From positions 37,050 through 101,049 of the forward strand of contig JAGXLL010000003.1 of NCBI GenBank assembly GCA_018334675.1: a stretch of DNA of 64,000 nucleotides, in the 5' to 3' direction. Below are positions 3,273 through 59,240 of the stretch, piece after piece. Each line of letters opens with the position of its first letter. The stretch's first letter is position 1. Source of the stretch: Bacteroidales bacterium (GTDB lineage: Bacteria > Bacteroidota > Bacteroidia > Bacteroidales > UBA12077). The notes beneath the pieces were generated by a model that did not search any database, had not been told where the DNA came from, and saw nothing but the letters and a program-made list of their open reading frames with translations. The translations under genes and the position numbers were made by a program.

Positions 3273-3308
3273 AAAAAACCACGCTGATGCTTTTCAGCGT
3301 GGTTTTTT
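3273..3308. terminator. Bidirectional rho-independent terminator between convergent genes
   Basis: Perfect 9-bp stem ccacgctga (3279-3287) / tcagcgtgg (3294-3302) with a 6-nt loop. It is flanked by A6 (3273-3278) and T6 (3303-3308). The TGA stop of the minus-strand ABC gene (3294-3296) lies inside the right arm. Confidence 0.75.
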
Positions 3309-9822: not shown

Positions 9823-11982
9823 ATGAAGAAGAGGATCTTCACCCTGCTCCTGCTTTCCCTTATTGCAGGGCCATGGAGCTATTCACAGCAAAAACAACTC
9901 ACCCTTGAACAGGCCGTCATCGGAAGATGGCAGGCATTGGCACCGGAGAACATACAGCAATTGAAATGGATACCCAAGACCGGCCGTTTCTCTTTCCTTG
10001 AAAACAAACAATTGATAGAAAATCAAGCGCGAAAGGACAAAAAAAAGACCATCACATCGCTCGAGCAACTGAACCAGGCTTTGCCCGACAGTATGGAGGC
10101 GATGAAACAATTTCCGCGTTTTAGCTGGGCCGGAACCCAGAAGATGCTCTTTCAGCACAACCACCATTGGTTTTTGGTCGATCCCTACCAGAAACAAATG
10201 ATCGGGTCGATGCGGCTGAATAAGGCTGCATCAAACAGCGATTATTGCCATTCCAGCCGCCATATTGCTTACACAATTGATAACAACCTTTTTATAAAAT
10301 CTTTCTCTGGAAATGCCGTGCAGATCACCCACGATCAGGACAAAGGTATTGTCAACGGGCAGGAAGTGCACCGGCGGGAATTTGGTATTCATACCGGCAC
10401 TTTCTGGTCGCCCGGGGGAAAGAAACTGGCTTATTACCGGAAGGATGAAAGGATGGTTAGCGATTATCCCCTGGTGAACATCGATAAAAGGGTAGCCGGA
10501 AAAAAACCAGTAAAATATCCCATGGCAGGTATGAAAAGCCATCACGTGCGCCTGGGGATTTATGATCTGAGAAGCAGGGATACCGTTTATCTGAAAACAG
10601 GAACACCTCGTGATCATTATCTTACCAATGTACAATGGGGACCTGATGGAAAATACATCTATATTGCTCTTCTGAACCGGGACCAGGACCATATGAAGCT
10701 GAACCGCTATGATGCTGCCACTGGTGATCTGGACCAAACCCTATTTGAGGAGACCCATGACAGATATGTGGAACCTCTCCATCCGGTCACTTTTCTGCCC
10801 GCAGACAAAGACCGTTTCATCTGGATGAGCCGGCGCGACGGCTACAACCACATTTATTTATACAATACCGAAGGAGAACTCTTGCGCCAGTTAACTCAAG
10901 GCAAATGGGAAGTTACGGCTATGGAAGGATTCGATTCGCAAGGTAAGAACCTGTTTTTTACTGCCACCAAAGTATCTCCACTTGAGAGGCATCTATACCG
11001 GCTGCGTCTTTCTTCCGGAAAAATCAGCAAACTTACCCGGGAACCCGGTTACCATCGGTGCGAGGTCAATCCTTACGGACCCTGGGTGATGGATCGCTTT
11101 TCCAGCCGCACCAAGCCCAACACCATTCAGGTTCTGAATCAAGATGGCCGCAATCAGCGGATCCTGCTCGAATCGAAAGATCCTCTGAAGGAATATGACC
11201 TGGGCGAAACGGAAATCTCAACCCTACAAGCCGGCGATGGAAAGACCGATCTCTACTATCGCCTGATCAAACCAGCCGATTTTGATCCGCAAAAAAAGTA
11301 TCCGGCCATCATTTATGTCTATGGCGGACCCCATGCTCAGCTCATTCAGAACCGTTGGCTGGGCGCAGCCCGCCTGTGGCAATACTATATGGCACAGAAA
11401 GGCTATGTAATGCTTACCCTGGATAACCGGGGATCGGCCAACAGGGGCCTCGCATTCGAAAACGTGGTACACCGTCAACTGGGAAAACACGAATTGGCGG
11501 ATCAGATGAAAGGAGTAGACCTACTCAAAGACCTCGATTATGTGGACGCATCAAGGATCGGGGTGCACGGATGGAGCTACGGAGGCTTTATGACCGCCTC
11601 CATGATGCTCAAAAAACCGGATGTCTTTCAAGTTGGGGTCGCTGGTGGACCGGTCATCGACTGGAAATATTATGAGGTGATGTACGGAGAAAGGTACATG
11701 GATAGCCCCCAGGATAACCCTGAAGGCTACCGGAATGCCAACCTGAAAAATTTTGTCTCCAACCTGGAGGGTGATCTCATGCTGATACAAGGCTATATAG
11801 ACGACGTGGTGGTGCCACAGCACAGTCTGAGCTTCATTCACGAATCTGTTAAACAAAACGTACAAGTCGATTATTCTATCTATCCCAGGCATCAACACAA
11901 TGTTCGGGGCAAAGACAGGGTACACCTGATGCGAAAAATCACTCAATACTTCGACGACCATCTTAAACATCCAAAGCCTTAA
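9823..11982 (+). CDS. Dipeptidyl-peptidase IV-type S9B serine peptidase
   Basis: 719 aa with a signal peptide and a DPPIV-type N-terminal propeller region. The C-terminal alpha/beta hydrolase carries the nucleophile motif GWSYGGF, then a later Asp (GYIDDVV) and His (HQHNV). Confidence 0.8.
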   Translation: MKKRIFTLLLLSLIAGPWSYSQQKQLTLEQAVIGRWQALAPENIQQLKWIPKTGRFSFLENKQLIENQARKDKKKTITSLEQLNQALPDSMEAMKQFPRFSWAGTQKMLFQHNHHWFLVDPYQKQMIGSMRLNKAASNSDYCHSSRHIAYTIDNNLFIKSFSGNAVQITHDQDKGIVNGQEVHRREFGIHTGTFWSPGGKKLAYYRKDERMVSDYPLVNIDKRVAGKKPVKYPMAGMKSHHVRLGIYDLRSRDTVYLKTGTPRDHYLTNVQWGPDGKYIYIALLNRDQDHMKLNRYDAATGDLDQTLFEETHDRYVEPLHPVTFLPADKDRFIWMSRRDGYNHIYLYNTEGELLRQLTQGKWEVTAMEGFDSQGKNLFFTATKVSPLERHLYRLRLSSGKISKLTREPGYHRCEVNPYGPWVMDRFSSRTKPNTIQVLNQDGRNQRILLESKDPLKEYDLGETEISTLQAGDGKTDLYYRLIKPADFDPQKKYPAIIYVYGGPHAQLIQNRWLGAARLWQYYMAQKGYVMLTLDNRGSANRGLAFENVVHRQLGKHELADQMKGVDLLKDLDYVDASRIGVHGWSYGGFMTASMMLKKPDVFQVGVAGGPVIDWKYYEVMYGERYMDSPQDNPEGYRNANLKNFVSNLEGDLMLIQGYIDDVVVPQHSLSFIHESVKQNVQVDYSIYPRHQHNVRGKDRVHLMRKITQYFDDHLKHPKP

Positions 11983-12109: not shown

Positions 12110-13717
12110 TTGGAAAGACTGGAATCAAAAATCGACACCACATCGCACTCCTTCGGGGAGCAAGTGGATCAATACCGCCAAATACTGGAAACCTTTCACG
12201 GAAAGATGGACCGCGTTCTATCGGGAGGTGGAGAAAAGGCAATAAAAAAGCACCGGGAAAGGGGCAAGCTTTTGGTGCGGGAGCGCATTGAACAATTGAC
12301 GGATGAGCAGACTCCCTTTCTGGAGCTGTCGCCCCTGGCTGCCAATGATCAATATGAAGATGCTTTTCCTTCGGCGGGCATTGTTACCGGGATAGGCCTG
12401 ATCGAGGGACGCGAGGCAGTGATCGTGGCCAATGACGCCACGGTCAAAGGCGGCACCTACATTCGTGAAACCATCCGCAAGCATGTAAGAGCCCAGGAGG
12501 TAGCCATGGAAAATCATCTGCCAGTGGTGTACATGGTTGACAGTGGAGGGGTCTTTCTGCCGGAACAATCCAGGGTTTTTCCTGACAAGGAAGATTTTGG
12601 CAGGCTGTTTCGCAACCAGGCTCAGATGTCGGCCCGGGGTATACCCCAGATCTCTATAGTAATGGGATCCTGTACGGCAGGAGGTGCCTATGTCCCGGCC
12701 ATGAGTGATGAAACGATCATCGTGCGCAATCAGGGAACCATTTTCATTGGGGGTCCGCCACTGGTCAAGGCGGCCACAGGGGAGGAAGTGACTGACGAAG
12801 AGCTGGGAGGTGCCGAAGTACATACTCGTATATCAGGTGTGGCCGATCATATGGCTGAAGATGATCAGGATGCCCTGCGCATATGCCGGGACATCTTTAA
12901 GGGCCTCCCCCGGCCCTACAAAGAGCCTATGGACATCCAACCAGCCAGGGAGCCCCGCTATGATGCCAGGGAGCTTTACGGGCTGGCGCCCATCGACCTG
13001 AAAAAGCCCATCGATGCCCGAGAGATCATTATGCGCATCGTGGATGACAGCAGCATTCAGGAATTCAAGAAAGACTACGGCACCACCCTTGTCACTGCTT
13101 TCTCCAGGATCATGGGTTATCCCGTCGGGATACTGGCCAACAATGGGGTCATCCACGGGGAGACGGCCAGAAAGGGGGCCCATTTCATTGAGTTGTGCCA
13201 ATACAGGAAAATACCGCTGATCTTTCTCCAAAACATCAGCGGCTTTATAGTAGGGAAAAAATATGAACAGGAAGGGATCGCACGCGATGGGGCCAAGCTG
13301 ATCCACGCCGTGGCCAATGCCAATGTCCCCAAGTTCACCGTCATCTTTGGCGGTTCATTCGGTGCCGGCAACTATGCCATGGCCGGCCGGGCTTATGATC
13401 CCCGGTTGTTGCTGATGTGGCCCAATGCCAAAATATCGGTCATGGGCGGTGAACAGGCGGCCAGTGTGCTGACCAGCATCCGGGAAGCTCAGCTAAAAAA
13501 AGCCGGCAAAACGCCTGAAGATAAGGAGATACAGGATTTCAGACAAAAGATGCTGGAGCGATATGAATACGAGGGTTCAGCTTATTACAGCACCTCCCGT
13601 GTATGGGACGACGGCATCATCGATCCGGTCGATACCCGGAAAGTTCTGGCTATGGGAATCGCCCTGGCGAGGAATGCCCCCTTTGAAGAACCACGAAATG
13701 GTATATTTAGAATGTAA
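12110..13717 (+). CDS. mccB: Methylcrotonyl-CoA carboxylase, carboxyltransferase (beta) subunit
   Basis: 535 aa with a TTG start. GGGEKAIKKHRERGKLLVRERIEQL...PFLELSPLAA and the length are characteristic of MCCase beta / acyl-CoA carboxyltransferases. The context includes the biotin carboxylase subunit. Confidence 0.8.
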   Translation: MERLESKIDTTSHSFGEQVDQYRQILETFHGKMDRVLSGGGEKAIKKHRERGKLLVRERIEQLTDEQTPFLELSPLAANDQYEDAFPSAGIVTGIGLIEGREAVIVANDATVKGGTYIRETIRKHVRAQEVAMENHLPVVYMVDSGGVFLPEQSRVFPDKEDFGRLFRNQAQMSARGIPQISIVMGSCTAGGAYVPAMSDETIIVRNQGTIFIGGPPLVKAATGEEVTDEELGGAEVHTRISGVADHMAEDDQDALRICRDIFKGLPRPYKEPMDIQPAREPRYDARELYGLAPIDLKKPIDAREIIMRIVDDSSIQEFKKDYGTTLVTAFSRIMGYPVGILANNGVIHGETARKGAHFIELCQYRKIPLIFLQNISGFIVGKKYEQEGIARDGAKLIHAVANANVPKFTVIFGGSFGAGNYAMAGRAYDPRLLLMWPNAKISVMGGEQAASVLTSIREAQLKKAGKTPEDKEIQDFRQKMLERYEYEGSAYYSTSRVWDDGIIDPVDTRKVLAMGIALARNAPFEEPRNGIFRM

Positions 13718-13728
13718 ATCTTTCAGTC

Positions 13729-14520
13729 ATGAATCATTTCAGTACCCTACAATTTCATATCCGGGACCGGGTTGCTTACCTGACCCTCAACAGACCTGAG
13801 GTGCGCAATGCCTTCAACGATCAGATGATGGGTGAGCTGAGAGAGGCCTTCTCGTTGGTCAATGATAACAGGGAGCTCATTGCGGTGATTCTCAGAGGTA
13901 ACGGACCGGTATTCAGCGCTGGTGCCGACCTGAACTGGATGAAAAGCACCCTGCACAACTCCTATGAACAGAACCGGACAGACAGCAGCCAGCTGCAGGA
14001 ACTCTTTGAAGCCTTCTTCCACATCGGGCCACCTGCCATTACCATCCTACACGGTGCCTGCATCGGAGGTGCCAATGGCCTGGCCGCGGCATCAGATATT
14101 GTGCTGGCCGAAGAACAAACCCAGTTTCGGTTCAGCGAAGTGCGGCTGGGTCTGATCCCGGCCACAATCGCTCCTTTTGTCATTCACCGTATGGGACCCC
14201 AGGCCGCCAAATACTACATGCTCTCAGGAAAGGCATTCAGGGGGGAAGAGGCCCTTCGCAACGGTCTGGTTAATGCAATTGGAGACCAGGAAAAACTGGA
14301 CACCGAACTGGACATCCTGCTCAAAGAACTGCCCAATAACAGTGCTCAGGCTATGTGGGAAACCAAACGACTGATCAACCAAATCGGTATGCTCACGGAT
14401 GAGCAGAAGATCAGGGAGCATACAGTCGATGCCATTGCCACAGCCAGGGTTAGTGAAGATGGTCAGGAAGGCATGCAGGCTTTCCTGGAGAAAAGAAAAC
14501 CCCGGTGGGTTCACCGGTAA
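13729..14520 (+). CDS. Enoyl-CoA hydratase/isomerase family (methylglutaconyl-CoA hydratase-like by context)
   Basis: 263 aa with crotonase-fold motifs (LTLNRPEVRNAF, FSAGADL, GGANGLA). It is sandwiched between the two MCCase subunits, as in Liu-type clusters. Confidence 0.75.
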   Translation: MNHFSTLQFHIRDRVAYLTLNRPEVRNAFNDQMMGELREAFSLVNDNRELIAVILRGNGPVFSAGADLNWMKSTLHNSYEQNRTDSSQLQELFEAFFHIGPPAITILHGACIGGANGLAAASDIVLAEEQTQFRFSEVRLGLIPATIAPFVIHRMGPQAAKYYMLSGKAFRGEEALRNGLVNAIGDQEKLDTELDILLKELPNNSAQAMWETKRLINQIGMLTDEQKIREHTVDAIATARVSEDGQEGMQAFLEKRKPRWVHR

Positions 14521-14611
14521 CAAAACGAACAAAAGATGTGCCAGGAATCAGACGATAATAACAGAACAGAAAATATCAAATAAGGGAAACAGGTATCAAA
14601 CAACATACAAA

Positions 14612-16591
14612 GTGAAAAAGATACAGAAAATACTGGTAGCCAACCGAGGTGAGATTGCCGTTAGAATCATACAAACGGCAAAACGGATGAACATCACCAC
14701 GGTTGCCGTTTATACAGAGCATGAGGGAAACCCTATGCACCGTGAAGTAGCTGATGAATCCTGGTCGCTGGGAGCAGGTAATCTAACGCAAACATACCTG
14801 GATATCCCATTGATCATGGACATCGCCCAAAAAAGCGGGGCCGACGCCATTCACCCCGGTTATGGTTTTCTGGCTGAAAACCCCGGACTGGCCAAAGCAT
14901 GTGAGCTAAACGGTATCCTGTTCATTGGTCCCCCCGAAAATGCCATACATACCATGGGCAACAAGCTGGAGGCCGCCCGCTTCGTGGAATCCCTTCATAT
15001 ACCCCTGCTCAACTTAAAAACCGGTACCCATGCTGAACTGATGGATCAGGTGACGCCTGGCGATTTTCCCCTGATGATCAAAGCAGCGGCAGGAGGGGGC
15101 GGCAAAGGCATGCGCATCATCCATGATCCGGATAAGCTAAGCGAAGCCCTTACTGCTACTGCCAGAGAAGCCAACAATTATTTCCGCAATCCGGATGTTT
15201 ACATCGAAAAATATGTAGCCGAGCCCAAACACGTGGAGATCCAGGTTCTGGCAGATGAGCACGGCAATTGTGTTCATCTTTTTGAGCGGGAATGCTCCAT
15301 TCAAAGAAGACACCAAAAGATCATAGAAGAGGCTCCCTCCCCTTCCCTGGATGAGACCACCCGTGAAAAGATGGGAGCCACTGCCGTTACTATTGCCAGG
15401 GAAATTGGATATACCGGTGCAGGGACAGTGGAATTTCTGCTCGATGAACAACAACGCTTTTTTTTCCTGGAGATGAATACCCGAATCCAGGTAGAACATC
15501 CCATAACCGAGATGATCACCGGTAAAGACCTGGTACACGAACAGATCCGCATCGCCCAGGGATACCCCCTATCCTTTAAACAAAGTGACCTGATCATTCA
15601 TGGACATGCCGTGGAGGCACGTATCTATGCCGAAGATCCCCATAACGATTTTATGCCCTCCCCCGGGGTTATTACCCGTTTCACTGCACCTGAGGGCACC
15701 GGCATCAGAACCGATACAGGGGTACGCTCGAGGGATGAGATATCTTCCGAGTACGACCCCATGATAGCCAAGGTAGTTGCCTGGGACGAAAAACGCACCT
15801 CAGCCATTGATCGCTTACGAATGGCTCTGGATAAAACTATAATCACCGGTATTCGAAACAACCGTTCCTATTTGGATCAAATTTTGAATCACCCTTATTT
15901 TACTGATAATAAGTTCACAACACGTTTTATCGAGCGGCACCATGAAGAACTGACAGAAAATCTTGAATGGCAAAAGGCAAATCAGGATAAGGCTTCATTA
16001 CTGGCTGCCTATATCTTTATCCGAAGCATGCCCAGGCAAAAGCAAAACGATGAACCCGCCTGGAAAGAAATTGGATACTGGAGGCCTCATATGCATTGGG
16101 ACATTCAGCTGGATGGACAACCCTTCGGGTGCCGGTTTAAAAGATACAATCATCAATTAACCTTGCAATTTGATCAAACCCCCCATCACTTCGAGCTTAA
16201 AAATACCGGTGGAGATTGGGTTACCCTTGAGTCGAAGGGGAGCCGAATAAGGGTATATTATTCTGAAAAGCGACATGAGACAGAAATTTCGGCGGAAGGG
16301 ATAACCCATCTTGCAGGGCATCATGGTTACCTCAGGACACTACAAAACAAAAAGGCCATCCATGCCCATCAGGAAATATCGCATACCATCAGCTCTCCAA
16401 TGTTTGGCAAAGTGCTGAGCATTGAGGTCAATGAACAAATGACAGTCAAAAAAGGACAAACCCTAATGATTCTGGAAGCCATGAAAATGGAAAACAACAT
16501 TCAGGCTCCGCAGGATACCACCATAAAACATATAGCGGTAAAAGAAGGGGATCAGGTCGAAGACGGACAACTCCTTTTAGAAACGTTATAG
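14612..16591 (+). CDS. mccA: Methylcrotonyl-CoA carboxylase, biotin carboxylase + BCCP (alpha) subunit
   Basis: I place the start at GTG 14612 (VKKIQKILVANRGEIAVRII, a canonical biotin-carboxylase N-terminus). The listed ORF start 14399 overlaps the previous gene. The C-terminal biotinyl motif EAMKMEN is present. Confidence 0.85.
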   Translation: MKKIQKILVANRGEIAVRIIQTAKRMNITTVAVYTEHEGNPMHREVADESWSLGAGNLTQTYLDIPLIMDIAQKSGADAIHPGYGFLAENPGLAKACELNGILFIGPPENAIHTMGNKLEAARFVESLHIPLLNLKTGTHAELMDQVTPGDFPLMIKAAAGGGGKGMRIIHDPDKLSEALTATAREANNYFRNPDVYIEKYVAEPKHVEIQVLADEHGNCVHLFERECSIQRRHQKIIEEAPSPSLDETTREKMGATAVTIAREIGYTGAGTVEFLLDEQQRFFFLEMNTRIQVEHPITEMITGKDLVHEQIRIAQGYPLSFKQSDLIIHGHAVEARIYAEDPHNDFMPSPGVITRFTAPEGTGIRTDTGVRSRDEISSEYDPMIAKVVAWDEKRTSAIDRLRMALDKTIITGIRNNRSYLDQILNHPYFTDNKFTTRFIERHHEELTENLEWQKANQDKASLLAAYIFIRSMPRQKQNDEPAWKEIGYWRPHMHWDIQLDGQPFGCRFKRYNHQLTLQFDQTPHHFELKNTGGDWVTLESKGSRIRVYYSEKRHETEISAEGITHLAGHHGYLRTLQNKKAIHAHQEISHTISSPMFGKVLSIEVNEQMTVKKGQTLMILEAMKMENNIQAPQDTTIKHIAVKEGDQVEDGQLLLETL

Positions 16592-16627
16592 CAAATCGAA
16601 CATGAACCATTTTCAAACTATACAACG

Positions 16628-17773
16628 ATGAATCCTTTTACAACAGACAAACATGAAGCATTCAGGAATAAAATACGGGAATTTGCGGAGCAGGAGATCC
16701 GGCCCGAAGCAAGGAAGCTGGACCAGGAAGAGCGCTTCTCCCCTGAACTGACTCAAAAGATGGCCGGACAGGGCCTGTTCGGAGTAGCCATTCCCGGGCA
16801 ATATGGTGGACAGGGACTGGATTACATGGCCCTTGTCATTGCCGTGGAAGAGATTGCCCGAATCGACGGATCACAGGCAGCCACCATCACCGCGGTCAAT
16901 TCCCTGGGCCTCGGACCCATATATAAATATGGCACGGAAAAACAAAGGCAACGGTTCCTGCCTCCCATCACCCGGGATGGCAAGACCTGGGCCTTTGGCC
17001 TTACCGAAAGAGATGCCGGCTCCGACAGCGGATCAACCCGCACCCATGCCGAACTCATTGATGGCCTTTGGCACATCAACGGATCCAAGATGTTCATATC
17101 CAACAGCACCAGTGATATCTCGGCCGGCATCACCGTTCAGGCCATAACCGGCAAGCAAGGTGACCGCGATGAGTTTTCCACCATCCTGGTGGAAGCGGAC
17201 CGGGAAGGTTACATCCGCCGGCCTATCCATAACAAAATGGTATGGCGTGCCGCCGACACCGGCGAGCTCCAGTTCCGGGATGTGACGGTTCCCGAGGAAA
17301 ACCTGCTGGGAGAAAGGGGCAAGGGACACCGCATCATGCTGGAAACCCTGGACTCCGGTCGTTTAACCGTGGGTGCCATGGGACTTGGTTTGGCCCGCGG
17401 AGCCTATGAGATGGCCCTTGACTATGCCCAGAAGCGCGTGCAGTTTGGCCGCCCCATCAGCAAATTCCAGTCCATCTCATTCAAACTGGCCGAGATGGCT
17501 ACAAAAATAGAAACTGCTAAAAACATGCTTTATCAAGCTGCCTGGTTAAAGATCCACGATCAGCCCTTTGGTAAGGAAGCGGCTATGGCCAAGCTTTATA
17601 CATCCGAGGTGGCCAAGGAGGTTGCTGATGAAGCCGTTCAGATTCATGGCGGTTATGGCTTGATCCAGGAGTACGACATCGAACGTTTCTTCCGCGACCA
17701 GCGCATCCTTCAGATTGGAGAGGGTACTTCCGAAGTGCTTAAGCTGGTGATCGCCAGAAAAATCGGGCTATGA
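16628..17773 (+). CDS. Acyl-CoA dehydrogenase (short/branched-chain type; an isovaleryl-CoA role is inferred from context only)
   Basis: 381 aa with ACAD architecture. The C-terminal motif is QIGEGTSEV, so the Glu sits at the MCAD/SCAD catalytic-base position rather than the GAGT I recall for canonical isovaleryl-CoA dehydrogenases. Confidence 0.8.
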   Translation: MNPFTTDKHEAFRNKIREFAEQEIRPEARKLDQEERFSPELTQKMAGQGLFGVAIPGQYGGQGLDYMALVIAVEEIARIDGSQAATITAVNSLGLGPIYKYGTEKQRQRFLPPITRDGKTWAFGLTERDAGSDSGSTRTHAELIDGLWHINGSKMFISNSTSDISAGITVQAITGKQGDRDEFSTILVEADREGYIRRPIHNKMVWRAADTGELQFRDVTVPEENLLGERGKGHRIMLETLDSGRLTVGAMGLGLARGAYEMALDYAQKRVQFGRPISKFQSISFKLAEMATKIETAKNMLYQAAWLKIHDQPFGKEAAMAKLYTSEVAKEVADEAVQIHGGYGLIQEYDIERFFRDQRILQIGEGTSEVLKLVIARKIGL

Positions 17774-17859
17774 TGCATGGCTGTATCGCAATAGTACGTT
17801 TATTATAGTATTACCAATAAAATTTCACCTTTGTCCAAAAAATAAATGACCGCAATCTA

Positions 17860-18852
17860 ATGGAACAAAGAAAATCCGATCATATCAACCTGGCACTGCA
17901 AACACAAACATCGGGCATAGAAAAAGACACCCGTTTTGCCTATGAACCCATGCTCCATGCCCATCCTTCAGATGAACTTCCACAAATACCCATTGGCAAT
18001 AAAAAGCTCAGGGCTCCATTATGGATATCAAGTATGACCGGAGGCACCAAGATGGCAGGTATGATAAACCGCAATCTGGCCACCCTGGCCGGTGAATTCG
18101 GGTTTGGCATGGGTTTGGGCTCTTGTCATGTGCTTTTGAGGAATGAAAAGCATTTGCCCGACTTTGATCTGAGGCATATAATCGGAGATGACCAGCCTTT
18201 TTATGCCAACATGGGCATCGCTCAGATAGAACAACTCCTCGGCAAGGGCGATGTGAAAACGATCCGGGATCTGGTTGGGCTTTTAAAGACAGACGGGTTG
18301 ATTGTCCATGTCAATCCCCTGCAGGAATGGCTGCAACCTGAAGGCGACCGCATCCAGCATCCCCCGGTCGAAATCATCAGCGAATTGGTAAGACAGGTGG
18401 ATGTCCCCATCATTGTCAAAGAGGTAGGTCAAGGCATGGGCAAGGAGAGCCTGCGGGCCCTTCTGGATCTGCCGCTGGCCGGAATCGAATTCGGAGCTTT
18501 CGGTGGAACCAATTTTGCCAAACTGGAGCTTCTGCGTGATGAAAGCGGCCGTAAAGGCCTGCTGGAACCCTTATCCTATATCGGAGAAACAGCCGGTGAC
18601 ATGACACGGCACATCAACCAGCTTATCGACGAAGGAGCTTCTGTCAAACCACAGAGCCTGATCATCTCGGGAGGGATAAAAAATTTTCTCGACGGATACC
18701 ACCTGATCAACACCAGCCAGCTTCCTGCTGCCTATGGAATGGCTTCCACCTTTTTGAAATATGCACGGGAAGATTATCAAACCCTGAAAAGATTTACCCA
18801 GGGACAACTGGAAGGATTAAAAGTGGCCTATGCCTATTTAAGAGTACTGTAA
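17860..18852 (+). CDS. fni: Type 2 isopentenyl-diphosphate delta-isomerase (FMN-dependent)
   Basis: 330 aa. RKSDHINLAL..., SSMTGGT and the overall TIM-barrel-type pattern are typical of Idi-2. It is adjacent to mevalonate-pathway genes. Confidence 0.8.
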   Translation: MEQRKSDHINLALQTQTSGIEKDTRFAYEPMLHAHPSDELPQIPIGNKKLRAPLWISSMTGGTKMAGMINRNLATLAGEFGFGMGLGSCHVLLRNEKHLPDFDLRHIIGDDQPFYANMGIAQIEQLLGKGDVKTIRDLVGLLKTDGLIVHVNPLQEWLQPEGDRIQHPPVEIISELVRQVDVPIIVKEVGQGMGKESLRALLDLPLAGIEFGAFGGTNFAKLELLRDESGRKGLLEPLSYIGETAGDMTRHINQLIDEGASVKPQSLIISGGIKNFLDGYHLINTSQLPAAYGMASTFLKYAREDYQTLKRFTQGQLEGLKVAYAYLRVL

Positions 18853-18864
18853 CCTCAAAAGATC

Positions 18865-20169
18865 ATGAAAAAAAACAACTATTTAGAAGGATTCAGCAAA
18901 ATGAGCAGGGAACAGAAGCTCTCCACCATGGCCCGGCTCGCGGATGATCCCCAATCATTCACTAAGGAACTGAAAAGCTTTCGCTACGCTGACGACCCTA
19001 TTCAACAGCGCTTTGAGCAATTCAGCGAGAATATCCTGTCCAATTATCACCTGCCTTTTGGCATTGCTCCCAATTTCCTGATTGATGGCAAACTTTACCA
19101 CATCCCCATGGTAACCGAAGAGAGTTCCGTAATTGCAGCCGCCTCCAAGGCAGCCAAATTCTGGTATAAACATGGGGGGATCCAAACCGAGAAAATATCC
19201 ACCCGCAAAAGGGGCCATATCCATTTCAGCTGGTATGGCACACCGGGTGAATTGGAGAAGCTTTACAAGGAATTTGAAAAAAAACTGCCCTCCTATATCT
19301 CCGAATTAACGGGCAACATGGAAAAAAGAGGCGGAGGTATTACAGAGGTATGGTTATCCGATCAGCATGAGGAGCTGCCGGATTACTACCAGATTGGCCT
19401 GTCCTTTGAAACGGTGGATTCCATGGGCGCCAATTTCATCAACTCTGTGCTGGAAAAAGCAGCAGAATTGCTGAAAACAGAGAGTGAAAAGGATCATCCC
19501 GGTAAGCTGGAGGTGATCATGGCTATCCTGTCCAATTATACCCCGGGTTCTTATGTTCAGATGAAAGCAGAATGTGCGGTGGAAGCGTTGAACGAGTTGG
19601 ACGGGAACACAAACGGAGCCGAACTGGCCGAGAAGTTCCATAAAGCCATTGAAATAGCTGATCACAGTGTCTCCAGAGCTGTAACCAACAACAAAGGGAT
19701 CATGAATGGAGTGGATGCAGTGGTAATAGCCACCGGCAATGATTTTAGAGCCATTGAGGCCGGTGTGCATGCCTATTCTGTTGACCGGGGAAGAACCACT
19801 TCGCTTTCCCAATGTGAGGTGAATGGAGGTGTTTTCACGTTCCGCCTGAGGATCCCCCTGGCATTGGGGACAGTTGGCGGGTTGACCAACCTGCATCCGT
19901 TGGCATCAAGAGCACTGGAAATCCTTGGAAAACCTTCAGCCAAAGAGCTCATGAGAATTGCCGGGGCCGTGGGCCTGGCCAGTAACTTCAGTGCCCTGCA
20001 TTCACTCATTACAACCGGCATTCAAAAAGGCCATATGAAACTGCATCTTGAAAACATTCTCATGGCTCTTGATGTTGATGAAACCATGAAGGAGAAGATA
20101 AAAGCCCGCTTCAAAAACCAATCTGTTTCCTATTCACAAGTAAAAGCTTTTATTGAAGGAGAATTATGA
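18865..20169 (+). CDS. Class II hydroxymethylglutaryl-CoA reductase
   Basis: 434 aa with EESSVIAAAS, DSMGANFIN, LGTVGG and a C-terminal KGHMKLH, which are class II HMGR hallmarks. Confidence 0.85.
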   Translation: MKKNNYLEGFSKMSREQKLSTMARLADDPQSFTKELKSFRYADDPIQQRFEQFSENILSNYHLPFGIAPNFLIDGKLYHIPMVTEESSVIAAASKAAKFWYKHGGIQTEKISTRKRGHIHFSWYGTPGELEKLYKEFEKKLPSYISELTGNMEKRGGGITEVWLSDQHEELPDYYQIGLSFETVDSMGANFINSVLEKAAELLKTESEKDHPGKLEVIMAILSNYTPGSYVQMKAECAVEALNELDGNTNGAELAEKFHKAIEIADHSVSRAVTNNKGIMNGVDAVVIATGNDFRAIEAGVHAYSVDRGRTTSLSQCEVNGGVFTFRLRIPLALGTVGGLTNLHPLASRALEILGKPSAKELMRIAGAVGLASNFSALHSLITTGIQKGHMKLHLENILMALDVDETMKEKIKARFKNQSVSYSQVKAFIEGEL

Positions 20170-21098
20170 TCCGCCAATACCATTCCAACGGAAAACTCTT
20201 ACTTACAGGAGAATACCTTGTGCTCAAAGGAGCCGAAGCCCTTGCCCTTCCCCTTAAGAAGGGTCAAACACTAAGGGTTAAGCCCTTGGAGGATCAGAAC
20301 CGGCTTATATGGAGAAGCATATATGAGGGGCAAATATTTTTCCAGGCGGTTTTCTCTATCGATGATTTCCGTATATTACAAACCAACAACCAGGAGCGGG
20401 CCGGCTTTTTGCAAAAACTTCTGCAAAGAGCCCTGAGCTACATTCCATCTTTTATAAGAAAAACCGGTTATTTCATTGAGACCTTCCTGAGTTTCCCTTT
20501 GGAATGGGGATTGGGCAGCAGTTCCACCCTCATATCCAACCTGGCCCAGTGGCTGGATATCAATCCATTTGAACTGAACCAGGATATCACAAGGGGCTCG
20601 GGATACGACATCGCCTGTGCGCGCAGCAACGGCCCGATCTTATACCAATACTCAAATATTGCTCCTCAATATCGGGAAATCGATCTCTCCCTGCCTTTCC
20701 AGGACTACATCTATTTTGTATATACCGGGAAAAAACAGAGATCAGCAAAAGAAGTACAGCGTTTCCTGACCCAACCCGAATCGCATGAACACCTTTTCAG
20801 TCAGGTAGATGAGATCAACGAACAGATCATAAACAGCAGCCAGCTTACCGATTTCGAACAAGCCCTGCGCGATCATGAAGCCATTCTTTCGCGGGTGCTT
20901 GATGCTCCCACCATTCAACAAAAATATTTTAAGGACTTTCCCGGAACCATCAAGTCATTAGGAGCCTGGGGCGGGGACTTTATTCTGGTCACCTGGACCG
21001 AAACCCGCTCACAATTAAAAGATTATTTTAATGCCCATGACATGGATGTCATTTTTTCCTGGAATGAACTGATAAAAGACAAGAAACATGCTGGATAA
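20166..21098 (+). CDS. GYDIA-type GHMP-family kinase (candidate phosphomevalonate kinase analogue)
   Basis: 310 aa with the GHMP motif WGLGSSSTLISNLA and the eponymous GSGYDIACA. The start overlaps the HMGR stop (ATGA at 20166-20169), and the 3' end overlaps the next gene by 11 nt. Confidence 0.7.
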   Translation: MIRQYHSNGKLLLTGEYLVLKGAEALALPLKKGQTLRVKPLEDQNRLIWRSIYEGQIFFQAVFSIDDFRILQTNNQERAGFLQKLLQRALSYIPSFIRKTGYFIETFLSFPLEWGLGSSSTLISNLAQWLDINPFELNQDITRGSGYDIACARSNGPILYQYSNIAPQYREIDLSLPFQDYIYFVYTGKKQRSAKEVQRFLTQPESHEHLFSQVDEINEQIINSSQLTDFEQALRDHEAILSRVLDAPTIQQKYFKDFPGTIKSLGAWGGDFILVTWTETRSQLKDYFNAHDMDVIFSWNELIKDKKHAG

Positions 21099-22188
21099 AA
21101 AGTACAGAGATGAGGCAATAGCAATAAGCAAACACGATCTTTCCAGCCTTCCCCGGACTGTAGGATGGGAATCCCCTTCCAATATTGCCCTGGTAAAATA
21201 CTGGGGCAAGAAGGGCTTTCAGGAACCCATCAACCCCTCAATTAGCATGACCCTGAGCAACATGCATACTCAAACCCGGATCCATTACGCCCGGGCCAGG
21301 AATGATCAAGGCAGGATGTGGCTGAGGTTCAACGGCATGGATAACCATCCCTTCGGGCAACGCATACAAAAATACATAAACTCGCTTGCTACGTATTTTC
21401 CCTTTCTTAAAAAACTGGACCTGCATATCGATACCCGCAACAGCTTCCCCCATTCTGCCGGTATGGCCTCATCGGCTTCAGCAATGAGTTCGCTTGCCCT
21501 TGCCATATGCTCCATTGAGCAGGGTTTACGGGAAGACCCCCTTACCACGGAACATTTCTCTCAAAAAGCTTCCTACATGGCCCGGTTGGGCTCGGGAAGT
21601 GCAGCCCGGTCGATATACGGCAATTATGTTGAGTGGGGACAGCACGCATACGGATCCGACGAGTTCGCACACCCCTATGCCAAAAAGATCCGGGAACCCC
21701 TGTCCTTTTTACATGATTCGGTTTTGATCACATCCACCGAACCCAAAAAAATGAAAAGTTCGTCTGGCCATGAGTTGATGGATCAGCATCCTTACCGACA
21801 AGCCAGGATAGGACAGGCATTGAGCAACATGGAGAAGATCAGCCGCTCACTAAGAGATGGGGATTTTCACTCCTTCAGTGAGGTGGCCGAAGAAGAAGCC
21901 CTCAGCCTGCATGCCCTGATGCTGGCGTCCAGACCGGGTTATACCCTCCTCAGGCAAGCCACCATCGAAATCATTGATGAGTTGAGGTCTTTCCGTCAAG
22001 AAACAGGAGCCGAGGTTACTTTCACACTGGATGCCGGACCCAATGTCCACGTGCTCTATCCCACCCGGGAAAAGGAGAGAATCAGGGAGTGGATGAATCA
22101 AAAGCTTAAACCCCTGTGTGAACATGGTAAGATGCTCCATGATTTTACCGGGACCGGACCGGAAAGACTTCATAATGGCCCCAGCTGA
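21088..22188 (+). CDS. mvaD: Diphosphomevalonate decarboxylase
   Basis: 366 aa with SPSNIALVKYWGKK and HSAGMASSASA, which are typical MVD motifs. Confidence 0.85.
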   Translation: MLDKKYRDEAIAISKHDLSSLPRTVGWESPSNIALVKYWGKKGFQEPINPSISMTLSNMHTQTRIHYARARNDQGRMWLRFNGMDNHPFGQRIQKYINSLATYFPFLKKLDLHIDTRNSFPHSAGMASSASAMSSLALAICSIEQGLREDPLTTEHFSQKASYMARLGSGSAARSIYGNYVEWGQHAYGSDEFAHPYAKKIREPLSFLHDSVLITSTEPKKMKSSSGHELMDQHPYRQARIGQALSNMEKISRSLRDGDFHSFSEVAEEEALSLHALMLASRPGYTLLRQATIEIIDELRSFRQETGAEVTFTLDAGPNVHVLYPTREKERIREWMNQKLKPLCEHGKMLHDFTGTGPERLHNGPS

Positions 22189-22271
22189 TGCCATAGATTA
22201 ACAAATTCTTACCGACAGCTAACGTAATATCATTATATAAAAGCAAAGATGAAACGACAAAACAAAGAGGA

Positions 22272-23240
22272 ATGAGCAAAGAGTTCAATAACAATAAAAT
22301 ATACTATGCCAAGATCATGTTATTCGGGGAGTATTCGGTAATCAAGAATAGCATGGCCCTTACTGTTCCCTACAGACATTTCAATGGTGAACTGAGGTTC
22401 ATTCACCGCGACAACTATACAGACTATGATTTCGCCCAGCGATCCAATCTGAACCTTTATAATTTGCTGGGTTATATCAAGGAAGTGTCCGGTCAGAACA
22501 GGCTGCTCAGCGCTTTTGACCTGGATGCCTTTGCCGGTGATCTTAAGCATGGTCTGTATTTTGAAAGCTCCATCCCCGAAGGCTATGGTGTGGGGAGTTC
22601 CGGAGCCTTAATTGCCGCCATATACAACCGATATGTAAAGGACCGCCCCGATCCCACCACACTGGACAGCAAAGGCATGGCATCGCTTAAAAATAAACTT
22701 GCCCAGCTCGAATCCTTTTACCATGGCACCAGTTCCGGCATCGACCCCTTAAACGCTTATATGAAACATCCCCTTTTATTCAGCGGCAAAGGAGAAGTAG
22801 ATAAAGCCAGCATTCACCTGCCGGCCAAAAACCCTGAGTTTGCTGTATTCCTGCTTAACACAGGATTAAAAAGAGAAACAGGTCCCCTGGTCAATATTTT
22901 TCTTGAGAGAGCAAAAAACAAGGAAGCGGGAGGCGTAGATGCAGAACACCTGATCGGGCTGACCAATCAGGCCATTCATTCGATCATGAAGGGAGCAAAC
23001 GGAGATTTTTTTCAATCGCTGCAAGGGCTTTCCAATTATCAGTTCAGACATTTTGAGCCTATGATCCCCCAGGGATACCGTCATCTCTGGAAAGAAGGCA
23101 TAGATAACAACCATTATTACCTGAAACTTTGCGGATCGGGAGGCGGTGGCTTTCTGCTGGGATTTACCGATGACTTCCCCGGGGTCAGGCATAAGCTGGG
23201 GAAGAAGGGGCTGGAGCTTATACCTGTTTACATGCCTTAA
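22272..23240 (+). CDS. mvk: Mevalonate kinase (GHMP family)
   Basis: 322 aa with the N-terminal KIMLFGEYSV and GHMP motif PEGYGVGSSGALIAAI. The context is the mevalonate block. Confidence 0.75.
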   Translation: MSKEFNNNKIYYAKIMLFGEYSVIKNSMALTVPYRHFNGELRFIHRDNYTDYDFAQRSNLNLYNLLGYIKEVSGQNRLLSAFDLDAFAGDLKHGLYFESSIPEGYGVGSSGALIAAIYNRYVKDRPDPTTLDSKGMASLKNKLAQLESFYHGTSSGIDPLNAYMKHPLLFSGKGEVDKASIHLPAKNPEFAVFLLNTGLKRETGPLVNIFLERAKNKEAGGVDAEHLIGLTNQAIHSIMKGANGDFFQSLQGLSNYQFRHFEPMIPQGYRHLWKEGIDNNHYYLKLCGSGGGGFLLGFTDDFPGVRHKLGKKGLELIPVYMP

Positions 23241-23327
23241 TGGTATGAGCCAGGCTTTTTCAATTGGCCGAAATGAAATGATCAAGAGATAAAAAAATCA
23301 CACATAGCCACACAAACATTATTTTAA

Positions 23328-23335
23328 TACATTTG
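23328..23335 (+). promoter_or_regulatory. Bacteroidota-type -7 box candidate (TACATTTG)
   Basis: Exact TAnnTTTG match in the 193-nt gap, about 99 nt upstream of ATG 23434. Low information content, so the support is positional only. Confidence 0.25.
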
Positions 23336-23433
23336 TTGGTATTTTATAAACCATTATTTTTACAAAAACTTTGAGGCTCCTGAAGCTTAAAAGGGAGCCA
23401 TTTTAAATCCTCATACGAAAAAACATCCGAATC

Positions 23434-24372
23434 ATGAGAAACACAGAAAAATTGAAGTTATGGCTGGCTGAGATGCGAGCCCCTTTTCTTATTCTGGCCG
23501 TATTACTGGTTGCCATAGGTTTGGCATTTGGTTGGAAATATCATCCGGAAGGAACCACCTTCAATCCCTTGCATGCCTTTCTTTTATTAGTAGGGGTGGT
23601 ATCCTCACATATCTCAGTCAACCTGTTCAACGAATATTCCGACAACAAGACCAAGATAGATCACAATACAAAAAGAACGCCTTTCAGCGGAGGAAGTGGT
23701 GTTCTAAGCTCTGGTAAGCTAAGCGAGCGCAGTGTTTTGCAGGCCGCAGTGGGAACATTGACTTTGGCCCTGGCCATAGGCATCTATTTTGCCGTTACAA
23801 TACATTGGATCATCTTGTTGCTGGCCGGCATCGGTGCTTTCAGCATCCTTTTCTACACCACAGTACTGACAAAGTTCCAGCTTGGCGAGCTTTTTTCGGG
23901 TCTGGCCCTCGGCACTTTTGTGGTGTTGGGTTCCTATGTTGTGATGACCGGAAGCCCGGAAATGGCCATAAAAGATCTCTTCCCGTTGGATGTCATTTTA
24001 ATGTCCATACCACCGGGTATTCTAACAGCTCTGTTGCTCCTGATCAATGAATTCCCGGATGTGGAAGCAGATAAGATGGGAGGAAGAAAGCACCTTGTGA
24101 TATGGCTGGGTCGGAAGAAAGCGGCATATGTATACACTTTAGGAATGGTGGCTTCTTTTGGCGTGATTATCGGAGCGGCGCTTTTCAATATAGTCACTCC
24201 CTGGTTTATGCTGGCCCTGCTACCCATGCCCCTGGCCTATAAGGCATCGCTGGGTGCCATACGTTACGGACATGACATGCCCAAACTTGTCCCGGCACTG
24301 GGCATGAACGTGCTTACCGTTTTGGGTACAGATTTGTTCATTGCAGTGGCAGTGATGATGGAAACCCTATAG
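23434..24372 (+). CDS. UbiA-family aromatic prenyltransferase (MenA-like)
   Basis: 312 aa, polytopic. First Asp-rich motif NEYSDNKTKID and second NEFPDVEADKMGGRKHL, as in UbiA/MenA enzymes. Confidence 0.7.
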   Translation: MRNTEKLKLWLAEMRAPFLILAVLLVAIGLAFGWKYHPEGTTFNPLHAFLLLVGVVSSHISVNLFNEYSDNKTKIDHNTKRTPFSGGSGVLSSGKLSERSVLQAAVGTLTLALAIGIYFAVTIHWIILLLAGIGAFSILFYTTVLTKFQLGELFSGLALGTFVVLGSYVVMTGSPEMAIKDLFPLDVILMSIPPGILTALLLLINEFPDVEADKMGGRKHLVIWLGRKKAAYVYTLGMVASFGVIIGAALFNIVTPWFMLALLPMPLAYKASLGAIRYGHDMPKLVPALGMNVLTVLGTDLFIAVAVMMETL

Positions 24373-24627
24373 ATAGGTCCTTACGGTTTACTGCTCTTCG
24401 CATAGAGTTTTATCCCGTCTTTGGACAGGATGAAAGCCTTCTTTTGAAGTATTTAGAAGAACAGGGAAACCTAAAGTGTTGCATTTCGAAAAACAACATG
24501 CTATAGCGTACTGTGAAATTCTCAGGTTTAAATTGCCTAAAAGATTTGTTTAATTCCACAATAATCTATTTTTTTGTCTTTTTAAGTTTCCCGAATATTA
24601 AATAAGTTCCCTATAACAGATCAGTTT

Positions 24628-25713
24628 ATGCAAGCGAATTACCAAACGGTTATAACAGGCTCTGGCCGATGCATACCCAATAATATTGTAAAGAATTCCG
24701 ACTTCATCAACAACGAATTCTACGATGAATCAGGGGTTAAGATGGATAAACCCAACGAAGAGATCATCCAGAAATTTAAGGAGATCACCGGCATTGAAGA
24801 GCGCAGGTATCTGGAAGACCATCAGGTTAATTCGGATCTTGCCTTTAATGCAGGGAAAGTGGCCATTGAAGATGCCGGGATCGACCCCGAAGAGCTCGAT
24901 TATATTATTGTGGCGCATAATTTTGGAGATGTAAAGAAATCAACTGGAAGTGTGGACACCATTCCCAGCGTTGCATCGCGAGTCAAACACCAACTGGGTA
25001 TTAACAATCCCGAGGCCATTGCCTACGACATCATATTTGGTTGTCCTGGTTGGATACAGGGACTGATCCAGGCCAACTATTACATCAAATCGGGTGATGC
25101 CTCCAAGATCCTTGTCATTGGCACAGAAGCCCTTTCCAGGGTATCCGATCCGCACGACCGGGATGGGATGATATTCGCCGATGGTGCGGGAGCAACGATT
25201 CTGGAGGCCAAAACCAGTGAACAGCCGGCAGGTATACTCTCCCATGCCGCTCGCTCAGATGCGCTCAATGAAGCTTATCTGATGTGGATGGAACGATCCA
25301 ATAACCCCAATTATCCTGGCGATGAGATCTTTATCAAGATGAATGGCAGAAAGCAATTCGAATACGCCCTGAACACCGTTCCACCTTTGCTGAAAAAGGC
25401 CGTGGAAAAATCGGGTGTGGATATAACAAAGATCAAAAAGGTACTGATCCATCAAGCCAACGAAAAGATGGACAATGCCATGCTCAAGAATTTTTTCAAA
25501 CTGTATGGCATCCGTGACATTCCCAAAGACATCATGCCCATGACCATCTCGAAATTGGGCAACAACTCAGTGGGTACCATACCTGTGATGCTGGATATGA
25601 TCCTGCGCGGAGAAATGGAAAACCAACACATAGGTCCGGGCGATCACTTTGTATTTGTATCGGTGGGGGCAGGTATGAACATCAATGCCATCGTCTACAA
25701 GATGCCTGAATAG
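24628..25713 (+). CDS. 3-oxoacyl-ACP synthase III (KAS III / FabH-like) family protein
   Basis: 361 aa thiolase-fold protein with an active-site Cys in IIFGCPGW, His in LIHQAN and Asn region GNNSVGTIP (Cys-His-Asn triad pattern). Confidence 0.7.
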   Translation: MQANYQTVITGSGRCIPNNIVKNSDFINNEFYDESGVKMDKPNEEIIQKFKEITGIEERRYLEDHQVNSDLAFNAGKVAIEDAGIDPEELDYIIVAHNFGDVKKSTGSVDTIPSVASRVKHQLGINNPEAIAYDIIFGCPGWIQGLIQANYYIKSGDASKILVIGTEALSRVSDPHDRDGMIFADGAGATILEAKTSEQPAGILSHAARSDALNEAYLMWMERSNNPNYPGDEIFIKMNGRKQFEYALNTVPPLLKKAVEKSGVDITKIKKVLIHQANEKMDNAMLKNFFKLYGIRDIPKDIMPMTISKLGNNSVGTIPVMLDMILRGEMENQHIGPGDHFVFVSVGAGMNINAIVYKMPE

Positions 25714-38196: not shown

Positions 38197-38326
38197 CTCA
38201 AATTAAGTGAAAAACAGATCCTTTAGCAACCTAATCGGGGGAAATTAGATCGGAAATTTTTTGTATCTTCACTACCTGATCATACAAACGCAAATAAGAA
38301 GGTATTTTCCACGTTTAAACTTACAA

Positions 38327-38779: not shown

Positions 38780-38781
38780 GA

Positions 38782-39222: not shown

Positions 39223-39421
39223 GGCTTGAAATTTTTTAGTGATTGTTTTTTAATAATAGTCCCTACCTAATATGGGCATATGAGGGCAAAAATGAACCCA
39301 AAGGGCTTAATCCCTGATAAAGGTAATGAATTTTTACGTGCTCCCAACATCTTCGCCGGCGACTCCCTCAAATGCTTGTCTCCTTATGCACAAATTTATC
39401 CGTCAGCTTTTGTATTAATGA

Positions 39422-39463
39422 GGCGAAGGCTAAGGCTAAGGCTAAGGCTGAGGCTGAGGCGAG
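39422..39463. repeat. Imperfect hexanucleotide tandem repeat, 7 units (GGCGAA-GGCTAA x3-GGCTGA x2-GGCGAG)
   Basis: Read directly from the sequence. It is intergenic, in the divergent promoter region between the OMP gene (39222) and the cyclase gene (39587). Confidence 0.9.
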
Positions 39464-59211: not shown

Positions 59212-59240
59212 GTATGTATATTCAAAAACGAGTGGCTATT

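Follow-up and report, generated by a model that had tools for sequence, protein, structure and literature searches.

A run of eleven genes at positions 12110 to 25713 of the window, by which we mean the whole 64,000-nt stretch of the Bacteroidales contig JAGXLL010000003.1 analyzed here, places genes of leucine catabolism directly ahead of genes of the mevalonate (MVA) pathway. The order of these genes recurs in at least 34 loci with unrelated flanks, and therefore the adjacency of the two halves is not due to chance. [quoted passage not shown] We regard this as the best reading because the enzymes encoded in the run cover all steps leading from isovaleryl-CoA to isopentenyl diphosphate (IPP) and dimethylallyl diphosphate (DMAPP); nine enzymes make up an unbroken reaction series, and none of them is foreign to that line. 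The arrangement suggests that part or all of the isoprenoids in this branch of the Bacteroidota are built directly from leucine. The metabolic link between leucine, HMG-CoA, and isoprenoids is known, and what is new is its form as a conserved, widespread operon in a bacterial phylum.

Gene families were assigned by searches against NCBIfam, Pfam, and the sequences of the Protein Data Bank (PDB; phmmer). Eleven intact open reading frames (ORFs) were found, all on the + strand, and both their positions and their identities agreed with a preliminary description of this DNA. The first gene (12110–13717, +) encodes a carboxyltransferase (PF01039, 492 bits), which is clearly of the beta-subunit type found in 3-methylcrotonyl-CoA carboxylase (MCC). 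It scored 668 bits with MCC beta of Pseudomonas aeruginosa (3u9r), 656 bits with human MCCC2, and 690 bits with AccD1 of Mycobacterium tuberculosis, whereas the scores were 447 bits with the beta subunit of geranyl-CoA carboxylase (GCC) and at most 267 bits with chains of the propionyl-CoA carboxylase (PCC) type. An Atu-type (geranyl-CoA) carboxylase was considered and ruled out by the difference between the MCC and GCC scores (668 versus 447 bits). Across the fused loci, the identity of MCC beta was 62–99%.

The second gene (13729–14520, +) encodes a crotonase of the LiuC/AtuE type (PF00378). Its NCBIfam scores were 219 bits with PRK05674 and 208 bits with PRK07468, under the respective cutoffs of 426 and 350 bits. 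The top PDB matches were 4kpk, 3i47, and AtuE (4zu2, 131 bits), and no match to Myxococcus xanthus LiuC or to AUH was obtained within an E value of 1e-20. Judged from its family and location, the crotonase is presumably the 3-methylglutaconyl-CoA hydratase that forms HMG-CoA. The position of its gene between those of MCC beta and MCC alpha fits this role; in Pseudomonas, liuC likewise lies between the MCC subunit genes, in the order liuB-liuC-liuD.

The third gene (14612–16591, +) encodes MCC alpha, in which the biotin carboxylase (BC) domains (Biotin_carb_N, CPSase_L_D2, and Biotin_carb_C) are followed by a Biotin_lipoyl biotin carboxyl carrier protein (BCCP) domain with an intact biotinylation motif, EAMKM; the assignment is at the level of the family. 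Its frame is open from 14399, so that 71 open codons, which overlap the end of the hydratase gene, precede a GTG at 14612. The mechanical ORF call gave 730 aa, compared with 659 aa from the GTG and 659–671 aa in relatives. The GTG at 14612 is most likely the true start, because the family match begins at residue 72–75 and the gene calls in relatives are shorter.

The last gene of the leucine half (16628–17773, +) encodes an acyl-CoA dehydrogenase (ACAD) with all four ACAD Pfam domains. It resembles short-chain acyl-CoA dehydrogenase (SCAD) and butyryl-CoA dehydrogenase (Bcd), with PDB scores of 358 bits for 7szv, 331 bits for Clostridioides difficile Bcd, and 284 bits for SCAD. The catalytic Glu occupies the position found in SCAD and medium-chain acyl-CoA dehydrogenase (MCAD), in the motif IGEGTSEV. 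At this site, isovaleryl-CoA dehydrogenase (IVD) has the motif IGAGT, and SCAD and Bcd have IYEGT. The Gly in the IGEGT of the window ACAD may widen the pocket for a branched substrate, which is offered only as a lead. On the strength of its gene context, ACAD would serve as the isovaleryl-CoA dehydrogenase of the unit.

The mevalonate half begins with type 2 IPP isomerase (IDI-2; 17860–18852, +; TIGR02151, E value of 7.8e-57, 193 bits against a cutoff of 281), whose gene lies immediately upstream of that for HMG-CoA reductase in many Bacteroidota loci. The reductase itself (HMGR; 18865–20169, +) is of class II and scored 264 bits with TIGR00532 (cutoff, 260) and 287 bits with PF00368. Among the invariant columns of the HMGR alignment (A1) are some with acidic residues, Lys, Asp, and His, which we take to correspond to the catalytic residues; an active class II enzyme should show this pattern. 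A GHMP kinase of the GYDIA family (20166–21098, +) scored 339 bits with NF040656 (cutoff, 225), a model labeled as a "hypothetical equivalog", and it is paired with HMGR in nearly all Bacteroidota loci. This protein is presumably the phosphomevalonate kinase (PMK) of the Bacteroidota type, the choice between the two kinases of the run being an inference. The occurrence of a divergent mevalonate kinase (MVK) and PMK in Bacteroidetes is attributed to Hayakawa et al. 2017, as cited in PMC6107057. Diphosphomevalonate decarboxylase (MVD; 21088–22188, +; PF22700 and PF18376) scored 169.4 bits with TIGR01240 (cutoff, 171.35), and the divergent MVK (22272–23240, +) scored 65 bits with TIGR00549 (E value of 8e-18; cutoff, 163). 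The orthologs of this MVK showed a faint GHMP_kinases_N match, and the gene follows that of MVD in every fused locus extending that far, except L055.

The usual tenth gene (23434–24372, +; PF01040) encodes a MenA-like prenyltransferase of the UbiA family, the best NCBIfam matches of which were all models of dihydroxynaphthoate (DHNA) polyprenyltransferases, every one under its cutoff. It is 73–84% identical in L003, L004, L086, L088, and L092 and is missing after MVK in L094 and L055. In one fused lineage (L086), an AMP-binding acyl-CoA synthetase of 553 aa (15989–17650, +) follows UbiA on the same strand, and this enzyme could activate free isovalerate. The eleventh gene (24628–25713, +) encodes a FabH-like 3-ketoacyl-ACP synthase III (KAS III; NF006829, 210 bits against a cutoff of 249), with Staphylococcus aureus FabH as the best PDB match (131 bits). 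Among the relatives, none but the closest ones (L001–L003 and L099–L102) have KAS III, and L004, L086, L088, and L094 lack it. It is a local neighbor outside the conserved unit. The possibility that it is a hidden HMG-CoA synthase (HMGS) or an acetoacetyl-CoA synthase of the NphT7 type was rejected, as it is an ordinary FabH homolog that is not conserved with the unit.

Relatives were found by tracing homologs of the window HMGR to their contigs. The order MCC beta, hydratase, MCC alpha, ACAD, IDI-2, HMGR, GYDIA kinase, MVD, MVK, and usually UbiA, all on the same strand, was present in at least 34 loci (29 of them non-redundant), namely L001–L005, L014, L055, L086–L088, L090–L092, L094, and 20 metagenome contigs. 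The preliminary description had listed eleven co-directional genes in the run; the first nine to ten of them form the conserved unit, to which KAS III does not belong. The HMGR identity to the window in the fused loci ranged from 95% down to approximately 45%, for instance 95% in L001, 70% in L003, 65% in L086, 64% in L094, 63% in L088, 58% in L090, 57% in L004 (NCBI metagenome-assembled genome [MAG] GCA_964585385.1), and 53% in L092 (GCA_046498195.1). These eight loci each have different neighboring genes. The carriers of the operon also include the MAGs GCA_036625695.1, JBNJHE01 (Y22_14dBSe1.bin.11), and PWNQ01 (CSSed10_331), as well as the long contigs Ga0310066_1000005, Ga0210099_1000002, and JGI25321J50212_10000004. 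A census of the flanks of the fused loci covered 128 ORFs with 164 Pfam families, none of which occurred more than four times, and there was among these ORFs no recurrent branched-chain aminotransferase (BCAT), branched-chain keto-acid dehydrogenase (BCKDH), electron transfer flavoprotein (Etf), acyl-CoA ligase, or polyprenyl synthase. Since the flanks are unrelated, the conserved unit ends exactly at MCC beta on one side and at MVK or UbiA on the other. A 57-aa ORF without a Pfam match lies between MCC alpha and ACAD in L090 (4923–5096) and L091 (4773–4946), and it was seen in this fused lineage only.

The fused arrangement is common in environmental Bacteroidota. Among metagenome contigs collected with the window IDI-2 as the query, ACAD was directly upstream of IDI-2 in 41 of the 59 loci with sufficient upstream sequence, and the entire MCC block was upstream in 18 of 28. 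When GTDB species representatives were scanned with the HMGR alignment, 2 fused loci (L014 and L055) were among the 80 listed. The rest were mostly from Flavobacteriia and Saprospiria, in which only HMGR-GYDIA or IDI2-HMGR was present; the matches listed in that scan were all at most 53% identical, and the fused clade is thus under-sampled in it. In a quick neighbor-joining distance tree of HMGR, rooted at the midpoint and carrying no support values, all nine fused loci included formed one group adjoining a Bacteroidales-type group. This grouping suggests a single origin of the fusion, which has been maintained since.

The genes of the run are closely packed. The intergenic gaps are, in order, 11, 91, 36, 86, 12, −4, −11, 83, 193, and 255 nt, and this recalculation matched the range from an 11-nt overlap to 255 nt given previously. 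The leucine half meets the mevalonate half at the 86-nt gap at 17774–17859 (+). A terminator scan revealed no terminator-like hairpin on the + strand of this junction, and the junction contains no exact match to the Bacteroidetes −7 box TAnnTTTG. The promoter search consisted of a σ70-type scan and exact matching of this −7 box, and the promoter and terminator scans of the window gave counts at the background level. One exact TAnnTTTG box was located at 23328, inside the 193-nt gap before UbiA, and UbiA may have its own promoter. An Rfam scan of the window detected no riboswitch or other RNA family. Over 57 loci, the median distance from the stop codon of ACAD to the start of IDI-2 was 20 nt, and it was 20 nt or less in 30 of the 57. 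L055 has 4 nt between the two genes and L014 has 5 nt, as read directly from the stop codon and the ATG, and these two junctions therefore have no room for a terminator and a promoter. From this packing, we infer that the run is co-transcribed as one operon.

These comparisons bear on the alternative that two independent operons happen to be neighbors in one genome. The 86-nt gap of the window could hold a promoter, a point in favor of this alternative, but the same order in 34 loci with unrelated flanks and with junctions as short as 4–5 nt refutes it, and we give it practically no weight. The view of the preliminary description that the two blocks are not fortuitous neighbors was thus upheld by synteny, the order being kept down to approximately 45% HMGR identity.

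In the proposed pathway, isovaleryl-CoA would come either from activated isovalerate or from leucine, in the latter case through a transaminase and a keto-acid dehydrogenase or oxidoreductase whose genes lie elsewhere. ACAD would oxidize isovaleryl-CoA to 3-methylcrotonyl-CoA, which the biotin- and ATP-dependent MCC (beta plus alpha) would carboxylate to 3-methylglutaconyl-CoA, and the LiuC-type crotonase would hydrate the latter to HMG-CoA. Instead of being cleaved by a lyase, HMG-CoA would then be reduced to mevalonate by the class II HMGR. MVK, the GYDIA kinase acting as PMK, and MVD would convert mevalonate to IPP, and IDI-2 would isomerize IPP to DMAPP. The MenA-like UbiA would consume the polyprenyl product, probably for menaquinone. 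In L003, a gene for a UbiE/MenG-like methyltransferase (15334–16089, −) lies between UbiA and KAS III, and its presence next to UbiA supports the menaquinone role of UbiA. If the unit is co-expressed, leucine would pass its C5 skeleton on to isoprene units, with a saving of three acetyl-CoA for each of them. The direction of the flux and the substrates of ACAD and the hydratase are predictions.

The direction toward HMG-CoA, that is, the carboxylating direction, is favored by a true MCC-type beta subunit together with the biotin motif in MCC alpha. The leucine-to-isoprenoid direction had been preferred in the preliminary description, and it fits an ATP-dependent MCC whose biotin motif is intact. 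The reverse flow is known from M. xanthus, in which LiuC stands at the HMG-CoA branch point and the operon for alternative isovaleryl-CoA biosynthesis (AIB) has the order aibR-aibA-aibB-aibC-mvaS (PMC5389471). In both systems a crotonase interconverts HMG-CoA and methylglutaconyl-CoA where the metabolism of isovaleryl-CoA meets that of mevalonate. The AIB pathway, however, proceeds from HMG-CoA to isovaleryl-CoA with the AibA/AibB decarboxylase, the AibC reductase, and MvaS, whereas AibA/AibB, AibC, and MvaS are all absent from the run, and the biotin-dependent MCC covers the step of carboxylation or decarboxylation. If the flow were reversed here, HMG-CoA from an unlinked HMGS would be dehydrated, decarboxylated by MCC working backward, and reduced by the Bcd-like ACAD to isovaleryl-CoA, which would prime iso-fatty acids through the FabH-like enzyme. 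The use of M. xanthus LiuC in the dehydrating direction (PMC5389471) is in line with this idea, as are the closeness of ACAD to enzymes of the Bcd and acryloyl-CoA reductase type, which are reductive in anaerobes, and the FabH-like gene with which the run closes both in the window and in the relatives nearest to it. Nevertheless, the run encodes a complete, ATP-dependent MCC, BC and BCCP domains included, and not a decarboxylase of the AibA/B type, Etf genes were found neither in the run nor among the ORFs of the window that were scanned, KAS III is missing from most fused loci, and HMGR in the same operon would compete for HMG-CoA. We therefore regard reverse flow as improbable. It had already been judged the less likely direction on the ground that MCC is a carboxylase, and the completeness of MCC and the lack of an AibA/B-type decarboxylase in the run agree with that judgment.

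Another possibility is a salvage loop, the mevalonate shunt, in which dimethylacrylyl-CoA arising from DMAPP or prenol would be returned to HMG-CoA by MCC and the hydratase, and leucine would not be the source. In animals, these two enzymes make up the trans-methylglutaconate shunt, and in the run their genes are linked to those of IDI-2 and the MVA enzymes. Such a loop, however, would leave no role for the conserved ACAD, whose gene is the one most tightly attached to the mevalonate half. In addition, the flank census revealed no prenol kinase, prenol dehydrogenase, or acyl-CoA ligase conserved in the unit. A salvage function is thus very improbable.

In the leucine half, as in liuRABCDE of Pseudomonas, the genes for a true MCC beta, a LiuC/AtuE-type crotonase, and MCC alpha follow one another in the order B-C-D, and an ACAD gene accompanies them. 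On the other hand, the run has neither the lyase gene liuE nor the regulator LiuR, and a complete lower MVA pathway stands in the place of the lyase. The dehydrogenase also differs, as it follows the carboxylase and is SCAD/Bcd-like rather than of the IVD type. The mevalonate half resembles the MVA pathway of the Flavobacterium johnsoniae type, which likewise has a class II HMGR paired with the GYDIA kinase, MVD, a divergent MVK, and IDI-2. In Flavobacteriaceae, however, adjacency is limited to HMGR and GYDIA, and leucine genes are not linked to them, whereas here five MVA genes and the prenyltransferase gene are in one operon, fused to the genes of MCC, the hydratase, and ACAD.

The chemistry proposed here, from leucine through HMG-CoA to mevalonate, is also that of the trypanosomatids Trypanosoma brucei and Leishmania. 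In T. brucei, leucine feeds only sterols through HMG-CoA, and lyase activity appears to be absent in vivo (PMC5993337). The trypanosomatid genes are eukaryotic and dispersed and the pathway was shown by labeling and genetics, whereas the present case is a bacterial operon recognized by comparative genomics only. In the archaeon Calditenuis ramacidaminiphagus, a channeling of branched-chain amino acids into mevalonate, in which leucine catabolism delivers HMG-CoA for isoprenoid lipids, was proposed from the genome and the proteome (PMC12979851); this organism has the alternative MVA pathway, and no operon fusion was reported. In an earlier survey, which covered 20 Bacteroidetes genomes, MCC was not detected in this phylum (PMC3199775), and full-text literature searches found no prior description of the fused operon.

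The preliminary description had relied on the absence of both HMGS and HMG-CoA lyase (HMGL) from the run. The absence itself was confirmed and extended. HMGS, HMGL-like proteins, and thiolase were not found anywhere in the 64-kb window, either by a Pfam scan of its other large ORFs, apart from three at 55935–62543, or by tblastn against the whole window. The tblastn queries were MvaS of S. aureus, human HMGCL, and AtoB of E. coli, and the MvaS sequence matched 1xpk over its full length (872 bits). However, the argument drawn from this absence turned out to be weak. With S. aureus MvaS as the tblastn query, HMGS was never found within 10 kb of mevalonate genes in about 170–176 Bacteroidota loci, and no acetoacetyl-CoA thiolase was found around the mevalonate genes of these loci. 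A tblastn search with the same query against the collected loci and plasmids detected no Bacteroidota HMGS at all. Neither an HMGL-like domain nor an HMGCL homolog was present in the window or in any fused locus, and an unfused leucine module (L096) likewise had no lyase beside it.

Several observations weigh against a dedicated route from leucine to isoprenoids. HMGS and HMGL are unlinked to MVA and Liu genes across the Bacteroidota sample, and they are annotated in most Flavobacteriaceae. A published table of 10 Flavobacteriaceae genomes records thiolase in all 10 and HMGS in 8, and Elizabethkingia encodes HMGL elsewhere in its genome (PMC4026382). In addition, ACAD is not a canonical IVD, with 182–198 bits for IVD structures compared with 284–358 bits for SCAD/Bcd-like enzymes; the hydratase, IDI-2, MVD, MVK, and UbiA all score under the curated NCBIfam cutoffs; and the 86-nt junction in the window is long enough for an internal promoter. 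Since HMGS and HMGL are unlinked, carriers of the operon may also make HMG-CoA from acetyl-CoA and cleave it, in which case the operon would be an arrangement around a shared node rather than a dedicated shunt. The claim that the hydratase is the only source of HMG-CoA accordingly holds for the run, but it would not necessarily hold for the genome, given that Flavobacteriaceae encode thiolase, HMGS, and HMGL elsewhere.

The shared node may also be conceived without real channeling, such that HMG-CoA from the Liu enzymes goes mainly to a lyase encoded elsewhere and the mevalonate half is fed mainly by a thiolase and HMGS encoded elsewhere, the two halves being kept together for convenient co-regulation around one metabolite or for historical reasons. 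This view accommodates the lack of HMGS near MVA genes in approximately 170 Bacteroidota loci, the annotation of HMGS, thiolase, and HMGL elsewhere in Flavobacteriaceae genomes, and the lack of an adjacent lyase in the unfused Liu module L096. History alone, however, does not explain junctions of 4–20 nt that are kept despite HMGR divergence (approximately 45–50% identity) and reshuffled flanks, and the co-expression of a degradative and a biosynthetic block is most sensible when the biosynthetic block uses what the degradative one produces. We consider this view rather unlikely. At the other extreme, the fused operon would be the sole route to HMG-CoA, with both HMGS and HMGL missing from the genome, and all essential isoprenoids would derive obligatorily from the skeleton of leucine or isovalerate. 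This stronger claim is doubtful. If it were true, leucine "catabolism" would have been turned wholly anabolic, the essential isoprenoids in question being undecaprenyl phosphate and menaquinone, and a lineage without HMGS would provide the first known case of a bacterium all of whose isoprenoids depend on the skeleton of an amino acid.

The two halves also occur apart in relatives of the window. MCCb-ECH-MCCa-ACAD (ECH, the crotonase) stands alone in L096, a Bacteroidales MAG, and is followed by a TonB receptor, and the mevalonate block stands alone in L016, L025, L037, and L042. Ancylomarina spp. (L009, 7688–14370; L021) have ACAD-IDI2-HMGR-GYDIA-MVD-MVK, and no MCC or hydratase was found within 7.7 kb upstream, where a MutS-like gene is located instead. 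Marinifilum fragile (L093) has MCCb-ECH-MCCa-AtuA-ACAD within a large cluster for acyl-CoA catabolism. The ACADs of Marinifilum (L093) and Ancylomarina (L009 and L021) are orthologs of the window ACAD, with approximately 60% identity (59% for the Ancylomarina ortholog). ACAD is the hinge between the halves, because one and the same ortholog follows MCC in Marinifilum and precedes IDI2 in Ancylomarina. An ancestral fused operon appears to have broken in two different ways in the two genera, unless they represent an intermediate stage of its assembly.

The co-directional cluster of M. fragile (L093, 1–18100; chromosome positions 454046–475653) begins with genes for 3-hydroxyacyl-CoA dehydrogenase, thiolase, ACAD, EtfB, EtfA, and an Fe-S/CCG oxidoreductase. 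These are followed by a fused IcmF-like B12-dependent mutase of 1116 aa (B12-binding, MeaB, and MM_CoA_mutase domains) and by MCCb, ECH, MCCa, AtuA, and ACAD, and the cluster ends with an acetate/butyrate-kinase-like gene. The mutase beside MCC hints at an interconversion of isovaleryl-CoA and pivalyl-CoA, or of isobutyryl-CoA and butyryl-CoA, that would feed the pathway. In Lentimicrobium sp. (L095, 8004–11671), a lone MCC-beta-like carboxyltransferase (556 aa, 70% identical) is encoded directly downstream of the gene for DXP synthase of the MEP pathway, and no alpha subunit or hydratase gene was found nearby; this is another kind of adjacency between a carboxyltransferase gene and an isoprenoid gene.

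Upstream of the run, a gene for an S9 dipeptidyl peptidase (DPPIV_N and Peptidase_S9; 9823–11982, +) ends 127 nt before MCC beta, and a sodium:solute symporter gene (7856–9607, −) is divergent from it. This pair is kept in L001 and L003 and decayed in L092, and L055 has an amino-acid permease gene in its place. These peptidase and transport genes may form a supply line for leucine. A plausible rationale for the operon would be carbon economy in peptide-degrading bacteria, in which one leucine skeleton would replace three acetyl-CoA per C5 unit.

Leucine-derived HMG-CoA feeds isoprenoids in trypanosomatids and myxobacteria, and the same has been proposed for some archaea; in those organisms the genes are dispersed and the link was found by labeling. 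In the Bacteroidota, the link takes the form of a compact operon that is widely conserved in uncultured members from sediments, soda lakes, and other environments. The operon yields a testable prediction on the source of isoprenoid carbon in these organisms, and it bears on how isotopic signatures in bacterial quinones and in further isoprenoid lipids are read. It also offers a ready-made nine-gene cassette from isovaleryl-CoA to IPP and DMAPP for engineering.

Some other features of the window were recorded. The gene at 3294–6374 (−) encodes a protein of 1026 aa with an N-terminal TerB domain, an ABC ATPase domain, and an ABC-2 membrane domain, and L092 also has this gene upstream of its operon. 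The wider neighborhood of the operon is thus partly syntenic between the window and L092, the HMGRs of which are only 53% identical. At 38261–40657, a gene for a BLUF blue-light sensor (172 aa) is followed approximately 800 nt downstream by one for a PAS-domain adenylate/guanylate cyclase (366 aa), a possible pair for light-to-cyclic-nucleotide signaling. A T9SS sorting domain and SusC-like receptors show that the window comes from a member of the Bacteroidota, and a nickel superoxide dismutase (Sod_Ni) is encoded at 43808–44287 in this Bacteroidota genome.

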